From Candidatus Electronema halotolerans (lineage in GTDB: Bacteria > Desulfobacterota > Desulfobulbia > Desulfobulbales > Desulfobulbaceae), in assembly GCA_942493095.1 (NCBI GenBank), contig OW818675.1, forward strand, positions 1,890,001 to 1,922,000: a stretch of DNA of 32,000 nucleotides, written 5' to 3'. Shown here one piece after another: positions 1-15,861 of this stretch (its first letter is position 1; each line of letters opens with the position of its first letter). Both the position numbers and the translations under genes were made by a program. Below the pieces are notes generated by a model. It was given only the letters and a program-made list of their open reading frames with translations, ran no database searches and was not told the origin of the DNA.

Positions 1-115
1 ATTTTCCCGGCTGTCCCTGTGTCTGCCATGAAGATATTGTCCCGTGGCAGTGCTGGATATCCTATCTGCGGGCAACAGCATGAGCAATTTCACAATCAGG
101 AGGCGCAGGAAACGA

Positions 116-484
116 ATGAGTGATTTTTTGCAGCTCCGGCTGCTGCCGGGCGGTCAGGCGGTTCCGGCCAGCCCGGAAGGCAAGTTGAACTGCTGGGAAT
201 TCAGAAAGTGCGGTCGCGAGCCGGGCGGCGCAAACGCCTCTCATGCCGGAACCTGTCCGGCGGCAGTTGAAGCGCGGGCGGACGGCATTCACAGCGGCAT
301 GAACGGCGGACGCTGCTGCTGGGCTGTGACCGCCGCCCTGCGGCAGCAGGGTATCTGTTTGGACCAGTGTGGCGGCGACTGTGATGGCTGTGATTTTTAT
401 CGCTTGGTCAGGAACGAGGAGGAGCAGCGGCTGGTGCTCAGGCATATCCGGCCTGCCGCCCTGCTCAGAAGCAAGATGTTCTGA
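116..484 (+). CDS. Small Cys-rich protein with a two-CW-type domain (122 aa from this start)
   Basis: Lies in ORF 44..484. The ATG at 116 is preceded by AGGAGG (98-103) and AGGAA (107-111); position 44 is a GTG and the ATG at 80 has no SD. The protein carries NCWEFRKCGRE, then TCPA, NGGRCCW and C-x3-C-x2-C-x2-C-DFY, 9 Cys in total. As I recall it, this matches the two-CW domain pattern (CWEFxxCGRE ... GGxxCW ... CxxCxFY). There is no signal peptide and no attached sensor or kinase domain. Confidence 0.6.
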   Translation: MSDFLQLRLLPGGQAVPASPEGKLNCWEFRKCGREPGGANASHAGTCPAAVEARADGIHSGMNGGRCCWAVTAALRQQGICLDQCGGDCDGCDFYRLVRNEEEQRLVLRHIRPAALLRSKMF

Positions 485-512: not shown

Positions 513-1583
513 TCAGAGCTTCAGCACCAGCACGTCCGCCAGCCAGCCTGCGTAGCTGCTCCTGATCATCTCGGTCAGGGCGGCATGGTTGTTGACCGTG
601 ATGTTCAGGCTGCTGACAGCGGAACCGGCAAAGCCGGGCAGGGTGTATTCTCCGTCAGCAGTTGCGGTGACGACATCGCCTGCCGCGCCGTCCTCCTGCA
701 TATCCAGCAGACCGAGGCGCAGGCGGCTGTCCGCCGGATCCAGCCCCGCCTGAACACGCAAGGTCTCATCCGCAGTCAAGCTGCCGCCGGTGACAGTCAC
801 ATAAGGGGCGGTCGCGTTGTTGGTCAGGATGCCGACCTCCATATTCGGATGGTCAAAACCGGTCACAGTCAGGGGCGAGCGCAGCTTGCGGCGGCAAGTG
901 CCGGTGCGGAGTGTGCCATGCGCGGTGTAGCGGGTGCTGAGGGAAAGGATGTATTCATTGTTCCACGGCGCATCTTGGGCCGGGATGTGCGGCACCAGCA
1001 AGACTTCACTGTTGCTGACAGAGGCGAACTGGCTCTGCACCGCCCTGCCGCTGCGGGTCCCTTCGATCACGCAGCCGCAGTCCGGGGCAGTCCGATCAAA
1101 GTCGAGATTGCTGCCGGTCAGCCGGAGCACGCCGTCCGGGTTGAGAACATTGTTCAGCTTGAGCACCGTGTCTTCCGCCGAACTGATCACGGGCAGTTTT
1201 TCTTCGGCAGACACACGTTCTATGTGAACTTGCCGCCCAACCTCTTTGACAAGGGTGCGCGAAGCCGAGACCTTGACCCGCAGCATGTCCTCAACCGGCG
1301 GCAGCGGGTCGTCCGGCTCGTCCAGACGGACATTGAAGGAAAGGCTGTAGCTGAAGGCATTTTTCAGCGTGACCTTATTGCCGTTGACAAGCTGCTTCAT
1401 GATCATCTTGTCCCGCGCCATCAGCACTGCTTTGATCATTTCCTCGTCCCAGAGCGGATTGTCCCGCGCCATTTCCGCAGCCAGTTCATCATAGCCGAGG
1501 ACATTCCGCGCTATGAAGCGCAAGTTGTAGGACGGAGGCACGGTCATGGCGTTCGGTTCGGGCCGGCATAGGATAGTGTTCAT
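513..1583 (-). CDS. HU-like DNA-binding domain protein with DUF4469-like Ig-fold region (356 aa)
   Basis: Lies in ORF 513..1670. I prefer the ATG at 1583 because GGAGA sits 7 nt upstream, and the longer start would fall inside the predicted promoter. The N-terminus (YNLRFIARNVLGYDELAAEMA...MIKAVLMA...LVNGNKVTLKNAFSYSLSF) has the layout of bacterial HU/CCDC81-type domains. The middle part (PVISSAEDTVLKLNNVLNPDGVLRLTGSNLDFDRTAPDCGCVI...SNSEVLLVPHIP...YILSLSTRY) resembles DUF4469. The assignment is from memory of the family patterns, not from a search. Confidence 0.6.
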   Translation of the reverse strand: MNTILCRPEPNAMTVPPSYNLRFIARNVLGYDELAAEMARDNPLWDEEMIKAVLMARDKMIMKQLVNGNKVTLKNAFSYSLSFNVRLDEPDDPLPPVEDMLRVKVSASRTLVKEVGRQVHIERVSAEEKLPVISSAEDTVLKLNNVLNPDGVLRLTGSNLDFDRTAPDCGCVIEGTRSGRAVQSQFASVSNSEVLLVPHIPAQDAPWNNEYILSLSTRYTAHGTLRTGTCRRKLRSPLTVTGFDHPNMEVGILTNNATAPYVTVTGGSLTADETLRVQAGLDPADSRLRLGLLDMQEDGAAGDVVTATADGEYTLPGFAGSAVSSLNITVNNHAALTEMIRSSYAGWLADVLVLKL

Positions 1584-1641
1584 AGCGATTCTCCAATTGA
1601 ATTCAACTGCTTGATACTTCCGACAATATTCCTGACTCAGC

Positions 1642-1670
1642 AGCTTACGGAGGCGGCGGGGTTTTGTCAA
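1642..1670 (-). promoter_or_regulatory. Candidate sigma70 promoter of the HU-like gene (TTGACA-17-TAAGCT on the minus strand)
   Basis: On the minus strand the sequence reads TTGACA (1670..1665), a 17-nt spacer, then TAAGCT (1647..1642). It lies about 55 nt upstream of the ATG at 1583. Confidence 0.4.
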
Positions 1671-1700
1671 GCCTATTTTTTTCCGTCCTGGCAGCCAGTG

Positions 1701-1861
1701 TCTTGTCAGACAAGTCCCAAGGCAGTTGTCAAGAAACTCCTTTGGGAGTTATCAGAGAACTGACTAAGGAGTTGTGAAGAAACTGCCAAGGGACTTGTCA
1801 GACAACTTGCCGGGCAGTTGCCAAGCAACTCGCTGGTGAGTTCCGCAGCAGAATCCTTGCT
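1701..1861. repeat. Seven head-to-tail 23-bp units, each with a 15-bp imperfect dyad (consensus about AGTTGTC-N-GACAACT plus an 8-bp spacer)
   Basis: Units read off the sequence at exact 23-bp phasing: 1701 TCTTGTCAGACAAGTCCCAAGGC; 1724 AGTTGTCAAGAAACTCCTTTGGG; 1747 AGTTATCAGAGAACTGACTAAGG; 1770 AGTTGTGAAGAAACTGCCAAGGG; 1793 ACTTGTCAGACAACTTGCCGGGC; 1816 AGTTGCCAAGCAACTCGCTGGTG; 1839 AGTTCCGCAGCAGAATCCTTGCT. The last unit is the most degenerate. The array is non-coding and lies between divergent genes. Confidence 0.85.
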
Positions 1862-1999
1862 GTGTCCGCGTCTTTCAGCCAGCTATAAACACAGGAACTC
1901 TCTTCCCAGAAAAAGCGTAAAAAAGCGTTGATCTTTCCGCCTGTCAGTGCTTGTCTTATCGCAGGAGCTTGTATTTTCATCAACAAATGGAGGAGAACC

Positions 2000-2482
2000 A
2001 TGAAAACGCTTTTTGGGATGACTGCTGCCATGCTGCTGGTTGTGACGATGCTTTTTGTGGCCTTGCCGGGGAGGGCGGTGGCTGAAGAACCTGTTGCAGG
2101 GGACGCTTGCAATCCTCAAATTGATAGACCTGTTATAAAAAGATTCCCTATCTCAACGCTATGCTGTATTAACAGTACAACAATTGGCCTATGTAACCAA
2201 ATAAGATTGATATGCAGACGAGTGTCTTTAGTGTCAAATATTGGACAATGGGTACAAGTTGGAAATCAAACACCTGATACAGGAACAAGAGAATGCAAAG
2301 ATGGAGAGATATGTCAAAATGGACACTGCGTCTGTCCGCCAGCAGGCAAGATGCTGCAAGTAATGTCAGGTGCTCAAAAAGCCTGTGGATGCACGGCCTG
2401 TAATGAGTGTGAAAGATGTGTTAATAAAAGCTGTGTGCCTATTAAGAACGTCAGTCCATCCAGCCCACAATGTATCGAATGA
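2000..2482 (+). CDS. Secreted Cys-rich protein (160 aa, 16 Cys in the mature part), function unknown
   Basis: Lies in ORF 1928..2482. The ATG at 2000 is preceded by GGAGGAG (1989-1995). The signal peptide is MKTLFGMTAAMLLVVTMLFVALPGRAVA. The mature part has 16 Cys, including an EGF/knottin-like run CKDGEICQNGHCVCP and CGCTACNECERCVNKSC. GC is low: one 60-nt line I counted at 2161-2220 was 35%. Confidence 0.7.
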   Translation: MKTLFGMTAAMLLVVTMLFVALPGRAVAEEPVAGDACNPQIDRPVIKRFPISTLCCINSTTIGLCNQIRLICRRVSLVSNIGQWVQVGNQTPDTGTRECKDGEICQNGHCVCPPAGKMLQVMSGAQKACGCTACNECERCVNKSCVPIKNVSPSSPQCIE

Positions 2483-2755: not shown

Positions 2756-3910
2756 ATGAAGGGAATACAGGTGAAAGGCACGATCAGTGTCTTGGCCGCA
2801 GCCATGCTGCTTGGCACCGCAGTCAATGCTTCGGCATTGGATATTCAGTCCGGCAGCGACAAAGTGGAACTGAAGCTGAAAGGGCATCTCAACCGGGCGG
2901 TCATGTTTGCTGATGACGGCAAGGACAGCAAAGTGTTTCACGTTGACAACACCAACTCGGAAAGTCGGGTCGGGCTGTTCGGCAAAGTCAAGGCTTCCGA
3001 GAAGTTGACCATTGGCGGCAATTTTGAGCTGCAATGGCAGTCCAATCCTTCGGACAAGGTCTCAATGGAAGAGGAGAGCGTTGCCGGAGAATTCATTGAC
3101 CGAGCAATGGAAGTGTATTTTGATGTGAAACAGTTCGGCAAGTTGTCCTTGGGCAAGGGCAAAATGGCCTCAGATGAGAGTGTCGAGGTTGATCTGTCCG
3201 GCACAGATTTGGCTGGCAATGTCGGCGTGGCTGATGTGGGCGGCAACCTCAAATTCAATGGCCCGGCCTCGCTTGATCCGACAGTTGATGCGGACGGCAA
3301 TGTTGTGGATAAACGGCTCTCTGTCGGCAATGTCTTTGATCAGATGGACGGGTTGAGCAAGAAAAACCGGGTGCGCTATGACTCGCCCGCGTTTGCTGGC
3401 TTCAGTTTGAGTGCGTCCGCAGGGGAAAAGGACATGGCCGATGCCACCCTGAGATATTCCGGCGAGTTCAGCGGCGCCAAACTGCAAGGCGCGCTGGCTT
3501 TTGTCAATCCTGGCAGCGGCAAGGAGTACAGCCAGATTGACGGCTCGCTGTCCGCGCTGTTCGATTTTGGCCTCAACCTCACCGTTGCCTCTGGCAGCCG
3601 CAGCATGGACAATCTGCCCGCAGGCGGCGATGATCCGGTGTACAGCTACGGCAAGATCGGCTGGAAATGCGACAAGCTGCTGCCCTACGGCTCCACTGCG
3701 GTGTCTGTCGATTACGGGGTCTATGAGAACGTCAAGCATCAGGACAAGGGCGAGGAAGGCACTGCCTACGGTGTTCAGCTCGTGCAGAAGCTGTCTGACT
3801 GGAACACCGAGCTGTTTGCCGCCTATCGCAATTTTGCGCTTGATGACGACAGCGGCGCATCCTACGATGACATTTCGCTGGTCATGACTGGTGCCCGGCT
3901 CAAGTTCTGA
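2756..3910 (+). CDS. Outer-membrane porin (paralog 1, 384 aa)
   Basis: SD GGAGAGGAAGAG lies upstream. The signal peptide ends in ASA-LD. The sequence shows an alternating beta-strand pattern and ends in a C-terminal Phe (ARLKF), as expected for a beta-barrel outer-membrane protein. It aligns along its full length with the next gene. Confidence 0.8.
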   Translation: MKGIQVKGTISVLAAAMLLGTAVNASALDIQSGSDKVELKLKGHLNRAVMFADDGKDSKVFHVDNTNSESRVGLFGKVKASEKLTIGGNFELQWQSNPSDKVSMEEESVAGEFIDRAMEVYFDVKQFGKLSLGKGKMASDESVEVDLSGTDLAGNVGVADVGGNLKFNGPASLDPTVDADGNVVDKRLSVGNVFDQMDGLSKKNRVRYDSPAFAGFSLSASAGEKDMADATLRYSGEFSGAKLQGALAFVNPGSGKEYSQIDGSLSALFDFGLNLTVASGSRSMDNLPAGGDDPVYSYGKIGWKCDKLLPYGSTAVSVDYGVYENVKHQDKGEEGTAYGVQLVQKLSDWNTELFAAYRNFALDDDSGASYDDISLVMTGARLKF

Positions 3911-4011
3911 GACGCGCCCGCTCCTTGTTTCTTGTAGAAAAAAAGCCTGTGCTGAAGTATAATTACAAGGGAATTGCTTGAGCACAACCAATTTTTCACA
4001 AGAGGAAAGAG

Positions 4012-13716: not shown

Positions 13717-14736
13717 TCAAACCTTCTCAAGTGTGTTGATGCTGATATGCGGCCAGCGGACAAGCCCTGGATGGCCGTCTTCACGCGGCATGAAGTCAAG
13801 GATGACAATCTGCAAGTATTGCAGGATCATTTTGTCAACTCCATGATCATCAATCCGCATGATCCAGAAGGTTGATTTCATCGAAGCGGCATTGGCCTGT
13901 TTGACGATAAAGGGGATATTGTTGATTCCTCCTGTCTCCACTGTGCTGTCCACTTTCAGAACGGCTGTTGTTTCGAGAATATTGATGCCAGCTACATCCC
14001 ACTGATCCCTTACTTTTTGCAGGAGCCTTTGCGGGTTGATCGGATCAAATCCATGAAAATGGCAGTCCGCAAAGTGTTTGTACGGTGCCAAGTAAGGATC
14101 ATTCAGGTCACGGGTATCTCCAACAGGCAGCCCACTCTTTAACAGCTTCGGTATTTCAACATCATCAGGAACGAACCCGCTTCTTCCCAAAGCCAGCACA
14201 GCATCCCCATGAGGAATTGTGGCCAGCCGGGCGAGGTCGATTTCGTTTAACCTTTCATCAACCATGTGCAGCCAGAGTCCCGGTTCACGATGAATGACCT
14301 TGCCATCAAAATCACCTGCATTTTCATCTTTTGGGAAATCTTCAGCAGAAATCTGGGTTATCATCTGCTGATAGTCAAGGGCAACCACCCTCTGGTCAAA
14401 ATCTGGGCCTGCTGCTGCGATGCCGATGTTGTCCAGATGTTTTCCTCGATTTGGCACCCCCTTGTCCACCAAATCAAATTTAAGCTCTTCGTTATACTGA
14501 TTCACAAGCAGCCGATAGTCAATCTGCTCTCCATCTGACATTTCAATCTGCTTTCCATCTGACATTGCATCTTGAAAAGGGAGAGCAATCATATTGAACC
14601 CTTGTCCTTCAAAGTTTGGTGTGTTGCACCAAACACCAGGCAAGTCTTTCAACGGGCCGAGATCAGAATCACCTGATACAGCTCTGGAAAGAGTTCTGCC
14701 GTTCGCTTTCAGCGTGTGAAACAATTCATTAGCCAT
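13717..14736 (-). CDS. Nitrobindin/lipocalin-like beta-barrel protein, 339 aa (cassette gene 3, paralog of gene 2)
   Basis: LGPLKDLPGVWCN...GFNMIALPF...YRLLVNQYNEELKF...HREPGLWLHM...ATIPHGDAVLALG follows the nitrobindin/THAP4-type heme-binding barrel pattern (L..L.G.W.G.G ... Y.E...F ... H.E.G). The C-terminal block FIVKQANAASMKSTFWI...RWPHISINTLEKV is shared with the paralog. No signal peptide. Confidence 0.6.
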   Translation of the reverse strand: MANELFHTLKANGRTLSRAVSGDSDLGPLKDLPGVWCNTPNFEGQGFNMIALPFQDAMSDGKQIEMSDGEQIDYRLLVNQYNEELKFDLVDKGVPNRGKHLDNIGIAAAGPDFDQRVVALDYQQMITQISAEDFPKDENAGDFDGKVIHREPGLWLHMVDERLNEIDLARLATIPHGDAVLALGRSGFVPDDVEIPKLLKSGLPVGDTRDLNDPYLAPYKHFADCHFHGFDPINPQRLLQKVRDQWDVAGINILETTAVLKVDSTVETGGINNIPFIVKQANAASMKSTFWIMRIDDHGVDKMILQYLQIVILDFMPREDGHPGLVRWPHISINTLEKV

Positions 14737-14862: not shown

Positions 14863-15861
14863 TCAGCTATCGACCTTCTCCAGCGTATTGATGCTCACAT
14901 GCGGCCAGCGGATAATGCCAGGCAGTCCGTCCTCACGGGCAAGGAAGTCAAGCAGGACAACTTGCGCATATTGCAGACGGAATCTGATTGAACCATCTGT
15001 CTCTTGAATTTCCTGAATCCAAAAGGTTGACTTCATCGAAGCAGCATTTGCCTGCTTCACAATAAAGGGAAGATTGACAATGCCTCCGGTTTCCGCAGTG
15101 CTGTCAACCTCCAGCACGGTTGTCCTGATAATATTTACATCTTTATTTGCTTCCTTCAGCAGCTTATGCGGATTGACCGGATCGAAACGTCCCTGAAATG
15201 GATTCTCGTGAAAATGCCTGTATGGCTCCATGTAGGAATCAGTGAGCGGCATCGGATATCCGATCGGCAGGCCATTAATCGCCTCGATCCTCGGCGGGCC
15301 GCTATGCACAGCACTTTTTCCCACAGCCAGCACAGAATCACCGTGGGGAATAGTGGCCAGTCTGGCAATATCGAAACTGTTTGTCCGTTCGTTCAACATA
15401 TGCAGCAAAAGTCCTGGCTCATGATGAATCGCAAGGCCGGGGCCGCCTGCCTTTCCGCTCTGTGGAAAATCATCTGCCGCAATTTGATGGATGACCTGCT
15501 CATAATCAATCGTCACAACAAATTGATCTGAATCCTCGAACGTATCTTCATGATGCGGGAATATCTGCGGATCAGGCACATTCTGCTGTGTCCGCTTTAT
15601 GCCCCGGTTAGGCACTCCTTTGTCCACCAAGGTGAACTTCAGCGTTTCGTTGTACCGATTTATCAGCAGCCGATAGTTCAGTCGTGCAAAGGCGAACGGG
15701 AGGGCGATCATGTTCCAGCCGTGTCCTTCAAGATTCGGCTCGTTTTTCCATGTGCCGGGCAGATGTTGCAACGGACCAAGAAGTTCCTGATCTCCTGCTG
15801 TTGCGGTGCTGATTTTCCGTCCTTCAGTCTGAATTCTTGCAAGTTGCTCTTGGATTGACAT
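14863..15861 (-). CDS. Nitrobindin/lipocalin-like beta-barrel protein, 332 aa (cassette gene 2)
   Basis: AGGAGG lies 5 nt upstream of the ATG. LGPLQHLPGTWKN...GWNMIALPF...YRLLINRYNETLKF...HHEPGLLLHM...ATIPHGDSVLAVG. By eye it is roughly half identical to the 339-aa paralog. No signal peptide. Confidence 0.6.
   Translation of the reverse strand: MSIQEQLARIQTEGRKISTATAGDQELLGPLQHLPGTWKNEPNLEGHGWNMIALPFAFARLNYRLLINRYNETLKFTLVDKGVPNRGIKRTQQNVPDPQIFPHHEDTFEDSDQFVVTIDYEQVIHQIAADDFPQSGKAGGPGLAIHHEPGLLLHMLNERTNSFDIARLATIPHGDSVLAVGKSAVHSGPPRIEAINGLPIGYPMPLTDSYMEPYRHFHENPFQGRFDPVNPHKLLKEANKDVNIIRTTVLEVDSTAETGGIVNLPFIVKQANAASMKSTFWIQEIQETDGSIRFRLQYAQVVLLDFLAREDGLPGIIRWPHVSINTLEKVDS

Follow-up and report, generated by a model that had tools for sequence, protein, structure and literature searches.

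A tandem array of 23-bp dyad units in phase with the promoter of an HU-like gene in Candidatus Electronema halotolerans

We analyzed a stretch of 32,000 nt from Candidatus Electronema halotolerans (contig OW818675.1 of assembly GCA_942493095.1, positions 1,890,001 to 1,922,000; this whole stretch is called the window), in which a tandem array of dyad-symmetric 23-bp units lies upstream of a gene for a 356-aa HU-like protein. We found that the array is a real and selected cis-element, of a type that is new for its protein family, and that it is very probably a functional element tied to the HU-like gene and its promoter. An earlier note, made from the letters of this DNA alone, had proposed an array of dimer-type sites connected with the adjacent HU-like/DUF4469 gene, and this proposal is supported by arrays of the same format that stand upstream of most relatives of the gene and by their register with the promoter.

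The array and its register with the promoter

Phased tandem 23-bp repeats were confirmed by repeat finders and a shuffle-tested lag scan at the place where the earlier note had put them. Tandem Repeats Finder reported a period of 23 at 1703-1807 together with a period of 46 at 1702-1831, and a repeat search of the window yielded five in-register copies of the unit with spacings of 23, 23, 23 and 23. The same search returned several long inverted pairs in the array, which are expected because each unit is itself palindromic. In the lag scan the lag-23 segment at 1703-1850 (score 33) was the top tandem periodicity of the 32-kb window and lag 46 the second; in 1000 shuffles of the intergenic region that preserved the dinucleotides, the score at lags of 8-60 never came to 33 (maximum 15). 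Allowing at most 3 mismatches, AGTTGTCNGACAACT was matched five times in the 32-kb window, in all cases within the array, against a chance expectation of one match; five matches were reached in 0 of 100 shuffles. Neither a motif scan nor a search with the unit detected the dyad motif or the unit elsewhere in the window. With regard to dispersed repeats of the REP/MITE type, scattered copies are thus lacking within these 32 kb, the family loci have units of their own, and a few arrays stand away from family genes (see below). The GC content over window positions 1001-2000 is 0.54.

The array had been described as seven full units starting at 1701. The array itself is real, but of the seventh unit (1839-1861) no more than the first ~6 bases are preserved, and the periodic signal ends at ~1845-1850; on the promoter side an additional degenerate position at 1688-1705 had been missed. 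Likewise, the units are dyad-symmetric as stated, but the palindrome AGTTGTC-N-GACAACT assigned to them is a secondary symmetry across the linker, 11.5 bp (half a period) off the family-wide centre. In the family-wide register the dyad of the window reads CAACTSCC-NN-GGSAGTTG, with its six centres as given in the following list of features:

1688..1850, no strand: whole 23-bp lattice of seven positions with a 46-bp superperiod (Tandem Repeats Finder, repeat search, lag scan)
1688..1705: promoter-proximal degenerate lattice position, centre 1696.5, in register (1719.5 minus 23), with a CAC-CA-GTG-like core of the type of more distant orthologs
1711..1728: core site 1, CAAGTCCC-AA-GGCAGTTG, centre 1719.5
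1734..1751: core site 2, AAACTCCT-TT-GGGAGTTA, centre 1742.5
1757..1774: core site 3, GAACTGAC-TA-AGGAGTTG, centre 1765.5, the weakest dyad
1780..1797: core site 4, AAACTGCC-AA-GGGACTTG, centre 1788.5
1803..1820: core site 5, CAACTTGC-CG-GGCAGTTG, centre 1811.5
1826..1843: core site 6 (distal), CAACTCGC-TG-GTGAGTTC, centre 1834.5, keeping the CAC/GTG-type inner triplet of more distant orthologs
1671..1684, minus strand: A-tract GGAAAAAAATAGGC between the -35 and the lattice, corresponding to an A/T-rich consensus just upstream of the -35 across loci, which we take to be UP-element-like
1665..1670, minus strand: -35 hexamer TTGACA, near-invariant, ~86-89 bp upstream of the ATG across paralogs
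1642..1647, minus strand: -10 hexamer TAAGCT, a TAnnnT 17 bp after TTGACA
513..1583, minus strand: 356-aa protein with an HU fold, an immunoglobulin (Ig)-like domain (DUF4469) and a C-terminal beta-domain, the presumed ligand of the array (open reading frame (ORF), Pfam, AlphaFold2, Foldseek)

For comparison, a pattern-limited genome scan returned 69 loci of the gene family (Desulfobulbaceae, cable bacteria), about 2-14 per genome. A promoter of the form TTGACA-N17-TAnnnT, preceded by an A/T-rich tract and situated ~87 bp before the ATG, is kept in 60 of 63 family loci. The hexamer TAAGCT agrees with TATAAT at 3/6 positions, and a generic consensus scan misses the family promoter because of this weak -10. 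In the window the -35 TTGACA (1670-1665 on the minus strand) lies 30 bp from position 1701, so that the distance between array and promoter had been estimated about correctly. The gap from the last recognisable unit to the -35 is variable among the arrays; the distance from a dyad centre to the first T of the -35 equals 25.5+23n (±1) bp in 21 of 25 arrays (Rayleigh p = 5e-7). Counted by independent lineages, 10 of 13 are in phase with the promoter (binomial p = 4e-6), and this phase is kept though the spacers share no sequence. With the start site assumed to lie 7 nt after the -10, on which all positions relative to the start depend, the lattice centres would fall at about -61.5, -84.5, -107.5 and so on. 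The -61.5 position of the window would then be the degenerate unit at 1688-1705 with its ancestral-type CACTGG core, and in the orthologs at loci L076-L078 this promoter-proximal position retains CACTGG/GCACTGGTGC. Apart from the lattice, we observed a near-palindrome CAGTTGAATTCAATTG at 1594-1609, in the 5' untranslated region of the minus-strand gene just before the ribosome-binding site; it is conserved in L076-L079 and contains the AGTTG/CAAyT outer parts of the array half-sites.

The geometry of the site was derived from 31 arrays, each centred on its dyad. The dyad centre is located between two bases (even-length dyads) in 24 of 31 arrays. Counted from the centre, positions 2-9 have symmetry values of 0.7-0.9 and a conservation of about 0.82-0.86 among units; the central pair (symmetry 0.54) and positions 10-11 (symmetry 0.29) are neither symmetric nor conserved. 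This profile points to a unit that is composed of an 18-bp core (8+2+8) and a 5-bp linker. A non-palindromic 2-bp centre is found in both orientations within arrays, as expected of a two-fold symmetric reader, and 71% of the consensus-paired arm positions are Watson-Crick in individual units. The units are contiguous with linkers of only 5 bp and no Cas domain was found among the window proteins scanned against Pfam, in agreement with the earlier statement that this is not a CRISPR array.

Private arrays across the gene family

Similar arrays beside other DUF4469/HU-like genes, as envisaged by the earlier note, were found upstream of most relatives. The best tandem lag (among lags of 8-59) was exactly 23 or 46 bp in 47 of 63 family upstream regions and 22, 24, 45 or 47 bp in eight more. 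Within 514 kb of family-locus DNA, 46 of the 54 lag-23 segments were located between -450 and -60 of a family gene start. The number of detectable units per array is roughly 2-9, commonly 4-7. The family loci differ in their neighbour genes and in the orientation of the upstream neighbour, the N-domains of paralogs are 30-50% identical, and many of the loci lie at contig ends. For relatives of only 25-30% identity, three short upstream regions gave a best lag of 23 or 46 with a weak signal. Three loci (L007, L026 and L067; upstream positions -350 to -90) have a true period of 46 bp, in which two different 23-bp subunits alternate. In L007 the alternating dyads are GGGAT..ATCCC and AATTC-N10-GAATT; two binders or a dimer of dimers are possibilities for these three loci.

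Two further observations concern the surroundings of the arrays and the remote members of the family. A C-rich tract (e.g. CCCCACCTCCCCCAAA) borders the distal side of the array in one subfamily (L006, L016, L032, L047, L074 and L075), and such a tract directly abuts the promoter in L007, L011 and L059, where the proximal array is weak or atypical, which gives the impression of a clean deletion of the array. In two phage- or mobile-element-like contigs (L085, 5404-10164; L086, 5830-9044), remote members of the family are arranged in tandem; these contigs also have many small unassigned ORFs, a thymidylate synthase and an IstB-like ATPase. The long remote forms carry Lcl_C, PPC or DUF6242-like C-termini, which resemble modules of adhesins or for receptor binding rather than DNA-binding proteins.

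All paralogs have consensus 23-mers with dyad symmetry, but the sequences of these 23-mers are unrelated, as illustrated by ACATAC-CA-GTATGT, CCTCG-CC-CGAGG, CGAGAAGG-CG-CCTTCTCG, AATCCTA-TGAGCT-TAGGATT and CTTGGTG-TACC-CACCAAG. Below 70% N-domain identity the similarity of two arrays is at chance (10.6±1.1 of 23), and at 70% or more it rises to 15-21 of 23. The arrays within one genome are all different except for one identical pair, which is statistically indistinguishable from the background between genomes. Between orthologs the units are often better conserved than four-fold sites and flanks, which suggests sequence constraint: in the pair L020/L037 unit identity is 0.91 compared to 0.68 at four-fold sites and 0.48-0.52 in the flanks, and in the pair L033/L045 it is 0.91 compared to 0.63.

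The earlier note had named absence of the motif beside orthologs as evidence against a functional array. We observed that the window's orthologs keep the motif: those of 77-98% identity have ACAACT-SCC-NN-GGS-AGTT, and those of 71-75% have AACT-CAC-CA-GTG-AGTT, the change between the two groups being mirrored on both half-sites. A symmetric change was also found between L006 and L016 (ACATAC..GTATGT to ACATCC..GGATGT). The two edge units of the window are still of the CAC/GTG type and thus less homogenised than the interior units, as expected if unequal exchange homogenises the interior. In the 98%-identical ortholog locus L076 an exact gap of 23 bp removes one unit at about core site 3, the placement of the gap being ambiguous within the repeat. 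We also considered templated diversification, in which units would be copied from the coding sequence of the gene itself; this was rejected, as outside the arrays there were no matches beyond shuffled controls other than array extensions and a duplicate in L063, which is described below.

Seven dyad arrays of 23-bp period were found without an adjacent gene of the family (orphan arrays):

L015, 1785-1908
L018, 827-990
L021, 4490-4596
L044, 1402-1491
L046, 1105-1199
L054, 60-180
L062, 2739-2874

For five of the seven, a family gene follows 1.2-3.9 kb downstream that possesses a promoter or start and lacks a proximal array. The intervening genes are unrelated; in L044 they include toxin-antitoxin-like ones, as read from the translations. 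The orphan in L018 shares its unit type with the array of a paralog, L038, that belongs to the same genome (S01.Bin068). An array can thus become detached from its promoter or be duplicated elsewhere, and the orphans are hints of either roles beyond simple autoregulation or insertion-prone edges. L063 contains two copies of the array, the promoter and the first codons of the family gene, 2.6 kb from each other (1130-1430 and 3700-4010); the upstream copy is fused to unrelated sequence, and the locus adjoins what in translation reads as the 3' end of dnaA. In the window itself, a presence/absence cassette of ~670 bp (~1862-2530) has its breakpoint within 5 bp of the distal array edge and is absent from L076. 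It contains the gene at 2000-2482 (plus strand) for a secreted Cys-rich protein, which obtained no family assignment from Pfam or NCBIfam, its upstream region, and a perfect hairpin with a 10-bp stem, GTTCCCACGC-TCCA-GCGTGGGAAC, at about 2497-2520. Because it is missing at this 98%-identical locus, the Cys-rich gene is not a partner of the array.

The adjacent HU-like protein and the reading of the array

The window protein matches Pfam weakly and below cut-off (DUF4469 with 20.4 bits at a cut-off of 22.6; HU-DNA_bdg with 17.3 bits). Several relatives exceed the DUF4469 cut-off (P0139 with 35.7, P0163 with 28.7 and P0157 with 24.5 bits), and P0163 and P0211 pass that of PF18291. The AlphaFold2 model of the window protein has a pLDDT (predicted local distance difference test score) of 88.7. 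Its best Foldseek match in the PDB is 4FMR, a Bacteroides HU+Ig protein (E 2e-12; ~250 aligned columns spanning HU plus Ig), followed by HU/IHF chains, many of them with TM-scores (template modeling scores) of 0.6-0.8 on the target. The structure matches in BFVD are HU-like proteins only, and the family profile matches HU 5EKA at E 0.047. From the fold matches to 4FMR and HU, together with the relatives that pass Pfam, we classify the window protein as one of the Ig-subclade HU-HIG type with an extra C-terminal beta-domain; its predicted structure has the features that define this subclade, namely an N-terminal HU/IHF fold and an Ig-like DUF4469 domain directly after it. The family also shares lineage-specific expansion, fast divergence and the lack of a conserved operon partner with HU-HIG proteins. 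We collected 892 homologs of the window protein, of which the named ones are from cable bacteria (Electronema, Electrothrix). Exact-sequence look-ups found neither of the two flanking proteins on record.

With somewhat better than even confidence, we interpret the array as a cis-acting operator, or nucleation lattice, for cognate cooperative binding by dimers of the adjacent HU-HIG-type protein. Each 23-bp unit, with its two-fold 18-bp core and 5-bp linker, would be one site for a dimer of the protein encoded at 513-1583. Six to nine adjacent dimers would assemble cooperatively to a nucleoprotein filament, in which successive dimers would spiral round the DNA owing to the pitch of 23 bp, about 2.2 helical turns. 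The filament would be phase-locked to the sigma-70-type promoter, with its proximal site near -61.5 and directly upstream of the A-tract and the -35, and occupancy of the array could feed back on the transcription of the gene itself (autoregulation of either sign). After each gene duplication, protein and array would drift together to a new specificity, so that each paralog would own a private site. In this scheme we infer the adjacent protein as binder, the binding as a dimer, the cooperativity, the position of the start site and the regulatory outcome.

Several observations argue for such a scheme. Among them are the association of the arrays with the gene family, the footprint that the sites have in common, their register with the promoter, the HU/IHF fold of the N-domain and the lack of an RNA signature. 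As the sites are private to each paralog, the reader must be paralog-specific, and no such factor other than the adjacent protein is in evidence. The conservation of the units above four-fold sites and flanks and the concerted symmetric changes point to sequence-specific reading. The N-domain diverges faster than the C-terminal part of the protein, and residues that are kept within an array type but differ between types cluster at 37-64 and 100-113. For two clean switches of specificity the fixed differences are enriched in the N-terminal 30 residues (positions 6, 15 and 21 in one switch; 12, 18 and 29 in the other), with 6/60 versus 9/652 positions (Fisher p = 8e-4, a post hoc test on small numbers).

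Other observations weigh against this interpretation. Roughly 8-10 of 63 family genes have an intact promoter but no clear proximal array, and the array is therefore not required in cis for expression. The two longer phage- or mobile-element-like contigs of remote homologs with adhesin-like C-termini have no arrays. The family proteins are acidic overall, with a net charge of -5 to -22 in nearly all members scanned and 0 in one, and the HU core (31-125; mean charge -4.3) has an acidic arm with the sequence PDDPLPP; basic character is confined to residues 1-30, a beta-hairpin in the AlphaFold2 model. The group-specific residues in helices 1-2 could equally keep the dimers of different paralogs from mixing, and the co-divergence of gene and array is also expected from simple linkage. 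Furthermore, Burroughs et al. 2017 (PMC5499826) argued that in 4FMR the canonical DNA cleft is taken up by the Ig domain, and that a role of HU-HIG proteins as sequence-specific factors is unlikely.

As a wider and rather speculative extension of the operator-lattice interpretation, which we put forward tentatively, cable bacteria and their relatives might hold a natural library of mutually orthogonal HU-fold DNA-binding proteins that form phase-locked filaments on private lattices and serve as chromosomal address tags. Their specificity would be re-programmed after each duplication, possibly via the basic N-terminal beta-hairpin. The arrays and the matching orphan arrays of the same genome would then be protein-DNA landmarks that are joined via the conserved C-terminal domains, for chromosome organisation or self/non-self DNA sensing rather than for ordinary gene regulation.

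The surroundings of the array were characterized by domain scans, in which the flanking proteins were compared to Pfam and NCBIfam and 20 further window proteins to Pfam. The HU-like gene is monocistronic, and the next gene (44-484, plus strand), convergent with it, encodes a two-CW domain protein (NCBIfam NF045718, E 1e-22). Elsewhere the window has the gene content of an ordinary chromosome, including porins, an OmpR-type regulator, PriA, Wzm/Wzt and methyltransferases. Two tandem paralogs of 339 and 332 aa (13717-14736 and 14863-15861, minus strand) are 52% identical and have no Pfam match, and the first of them contains a 24-bp x 2 tandem repeat at 14519-14566. No Rep, ParA/ParM/TubZ, integrase, transposase or recombinase domain was found in the window proteins scanned, and PADLOC found nothing. 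There is no DnaA box near the array, the nearest match being at 3304, 1.4 kb away. A tblastn search with the window protein in a phage collection and one with the relative P0170 in a plasmid collection gave nothing, nor did the family profile in IMG/VR; in PHROGs there was a generic DNA-binding match only, for one remote relative.

We compared the operator-lattice interpretation with other explanations of the array. The array could be a structural DNA element, i.e. cruciform-prone or bent DNA or an insulator, read by a common factor that is not paralog-specific or by none, so that symmetry and spacing matter and not the sequence. Such an element would agree with the retention of symmetry and of the 23-bp period among paralogs whose array sequences are free to differ, with the strong folding of both single strands (z = -6.1 and -5.7), with the acidity of the adjacent protein and with the preference of HU-family proteins for distorted DNA. 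However, arms of 8 bp that are often imperfect (the 71% Watson-Crick pairing given above) are poor for cruciform extrusion, the unit sequence is conserved between orthologs and changes in a concerted and symmetric way, and the tie to one gene family would be left unexplained; we therefore consider this unlikely. Quite unlikely, in our view, is a hot spot of recombination or insertion, for instance a site of mobile DNA for attachment or for an accessory factor, at which the HU-like protein would play the part of an IHF-like architectural cofactor, although HU/IHF proteins do act as recombination cofactors. The cassette breakpoint within 5 bp of the distal array edge, the 1.2-3.9 kb of unrelated genes between array and family gene in five loci, the duplication of array and promoter in L063 and the many loci at contig ends speak for it. 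But the scanned window proteins lack integrase, transposase and recombinase domains, neither terminal inverted repeats nor target duplications were seen, the promoter register has no explanation in such a site, and intergenic regions tolerate insertions and deletions anyway. If the array were transcribed, it might act as an RNA, its string of hairpins serving as small RNA, decoy or untranslated-region element. Hairpin formation is possible in each unit, and on either strand the predicted folding of the region is clearly stronger than that of shuffles; equal folding of both strands is, however, expected of DNA palindromes and does not discriminate RNA from DNA. As the conserved promoter is on the downstream side of the array and directs transcription away from it, as mismatches in the arms have no wobble bias (G:T 65 versus A:C 83, p = 0.16, most mismatches not being wobble-type), as a scan of Rfam 15 gave only chance microRNA and small nucleolar RNA matches (E at least 0.3, far below gathering scores), and as the upstream neighbour and its orientation vary between loci, we regard this as very unlikely; a double-stranded DNA site is the economical reading.

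A non-functional minisatellite, kept by slippage and concerted evolution, is highly improbable. It would account for the shift in copy number by exact 23-bp units between 98%-identical loci and for edge units that are less homogenised than interior ones. It would not account for a format that persists across paralogs of 30-50% N-domain identity, a symmetry that is held while the sequence turns over, or a promoter phase kept in 10/13 lineages over spacers that share no sequence. The labels of iterons or a partition centromere, which the earlier note had suggested, were not borne out. In-phase repeats with a period of roughly two helical turns beside the gene of a putative binder, with a repeat sequence that differs between systems, are indeed what such a replicon element would look like. 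But neither Rep nor ParA/ParM/TubZ is present among the scanned window proteins, and the gene is monocistronic with a convergent neighbour. The units are dyads and not asymmetric direct repeats, the nearest DnaA-box match is at 3304, and there are 2-14 modules per chromosome, the window itself being ordinary chromosome. We thus regard a replicon element as largely refuted and give it hardly any credence.

Comparison with known systems and meaning for the family

The Ig-fused subclade of HU-HIG proteins (PF18291 with DUF4469, PF14734; 4FMR, BVU_2165; PMC5499826) is the closest known relative, with an HU fold followed by an Ig-like domain in both groups, numerous paralogs in each genome that diverge fast, a lack of conserved operon partners and 4FMR as the closest solved structure. 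It differs in that it belongs to the Bacteroidetes, whereas the proteins described here are from Desulfobulbaceae and cable bacteria and have an extra C-terminal beta-domain of ~130 aa. No cis-element has been reported for the HU-HIG clade, while the paralogs here have a private, promoter-phased 23-bp array. In the full-text literature on DUF4469, HU-HIG, cable-bacteria gene families and 23-bp repeats we found no description of the pairing of gene and array, which thus appears to be undescribed.

The format of the array resembles that of several plasmid elements. In type II/Ib centromere-operators, such as parC of R1 (10 x 11 bp) and parC of pSK41 (20-bp tandem repeats, on which ParR forms a superhelical filament), contiguous in-phase repeats of system-specific sequence likewise lie immediately upstream of the promoter of the binder gene. 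There, cooperative filament-like binding doubles as autoregulation, which for the array described here is a proposal. They have a motor gene, ParM or ParA, of which there is none here, and a ribbon-helix-helix binder instead of a putative HU-fold binder; the arrays here are chromosomal, with many orthogonal copies per genome and 23-bp dyad units. In sopC of the F plasmid, 12 repeats of 43 bp each contain a short inverted repeat that is bound by a SopB dimer. This is again a tandem array with one dyad site per unit for a dimer, but with a period of 43 instead of 23 bp, a binder of the ParB family, a location downstream of the operon and a function in partition with SopA. Plasmid iterons (R6K, pSC101, RK2, P1) are asymmetric direct repeats bound by Rep monomers and accompanied by an AT-rich unwinding element and DnaA boxes. 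They are alike in their ~22-bp-period repeats beside the binder's gene, which differ in sequence between replicons; asymmetric repeats, Rep, unwinding element and DnaA boxes, however, are all features that the window array does not have. As to the fold of the candidate binder, IHF, Borrelia Hbb and TF1 of phage SPO1 are sequence-specific members of the HU family, which use basic beta-arms on single asymmetric sites of ~30-35 bp. They demonstrate that the HU fold can acquire sequence preference, and their structures are among the Foldseek matches; they differ from the family described here, which has short acidic arms and 18-bp palindromes in tandem.

In practical terms, 160 bp of near-identical tandem units are hard for short-read assembly, and the 23-bp lattice can be used to flag promoters of the family in annotation. 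Within the HU superfamily the HU-HIG proteins form a large branch that evolves fast and has no assigned function, and private operator lattices next to nearly all paralogs would be a first concrete handle on their role. If the binding is indeed sequence-specific, the view of HU-HIG proteins as non-sequence-specific, taken in the sole published analysis of them, would be wrong. The family would then offer dozens of orthogonal protein/operator pairs of identical geometry as a parts list, and it would illustrate the repeated rewriting of DNA-binding specificity, with symmetric half-site changes that can be traced between orthologs.

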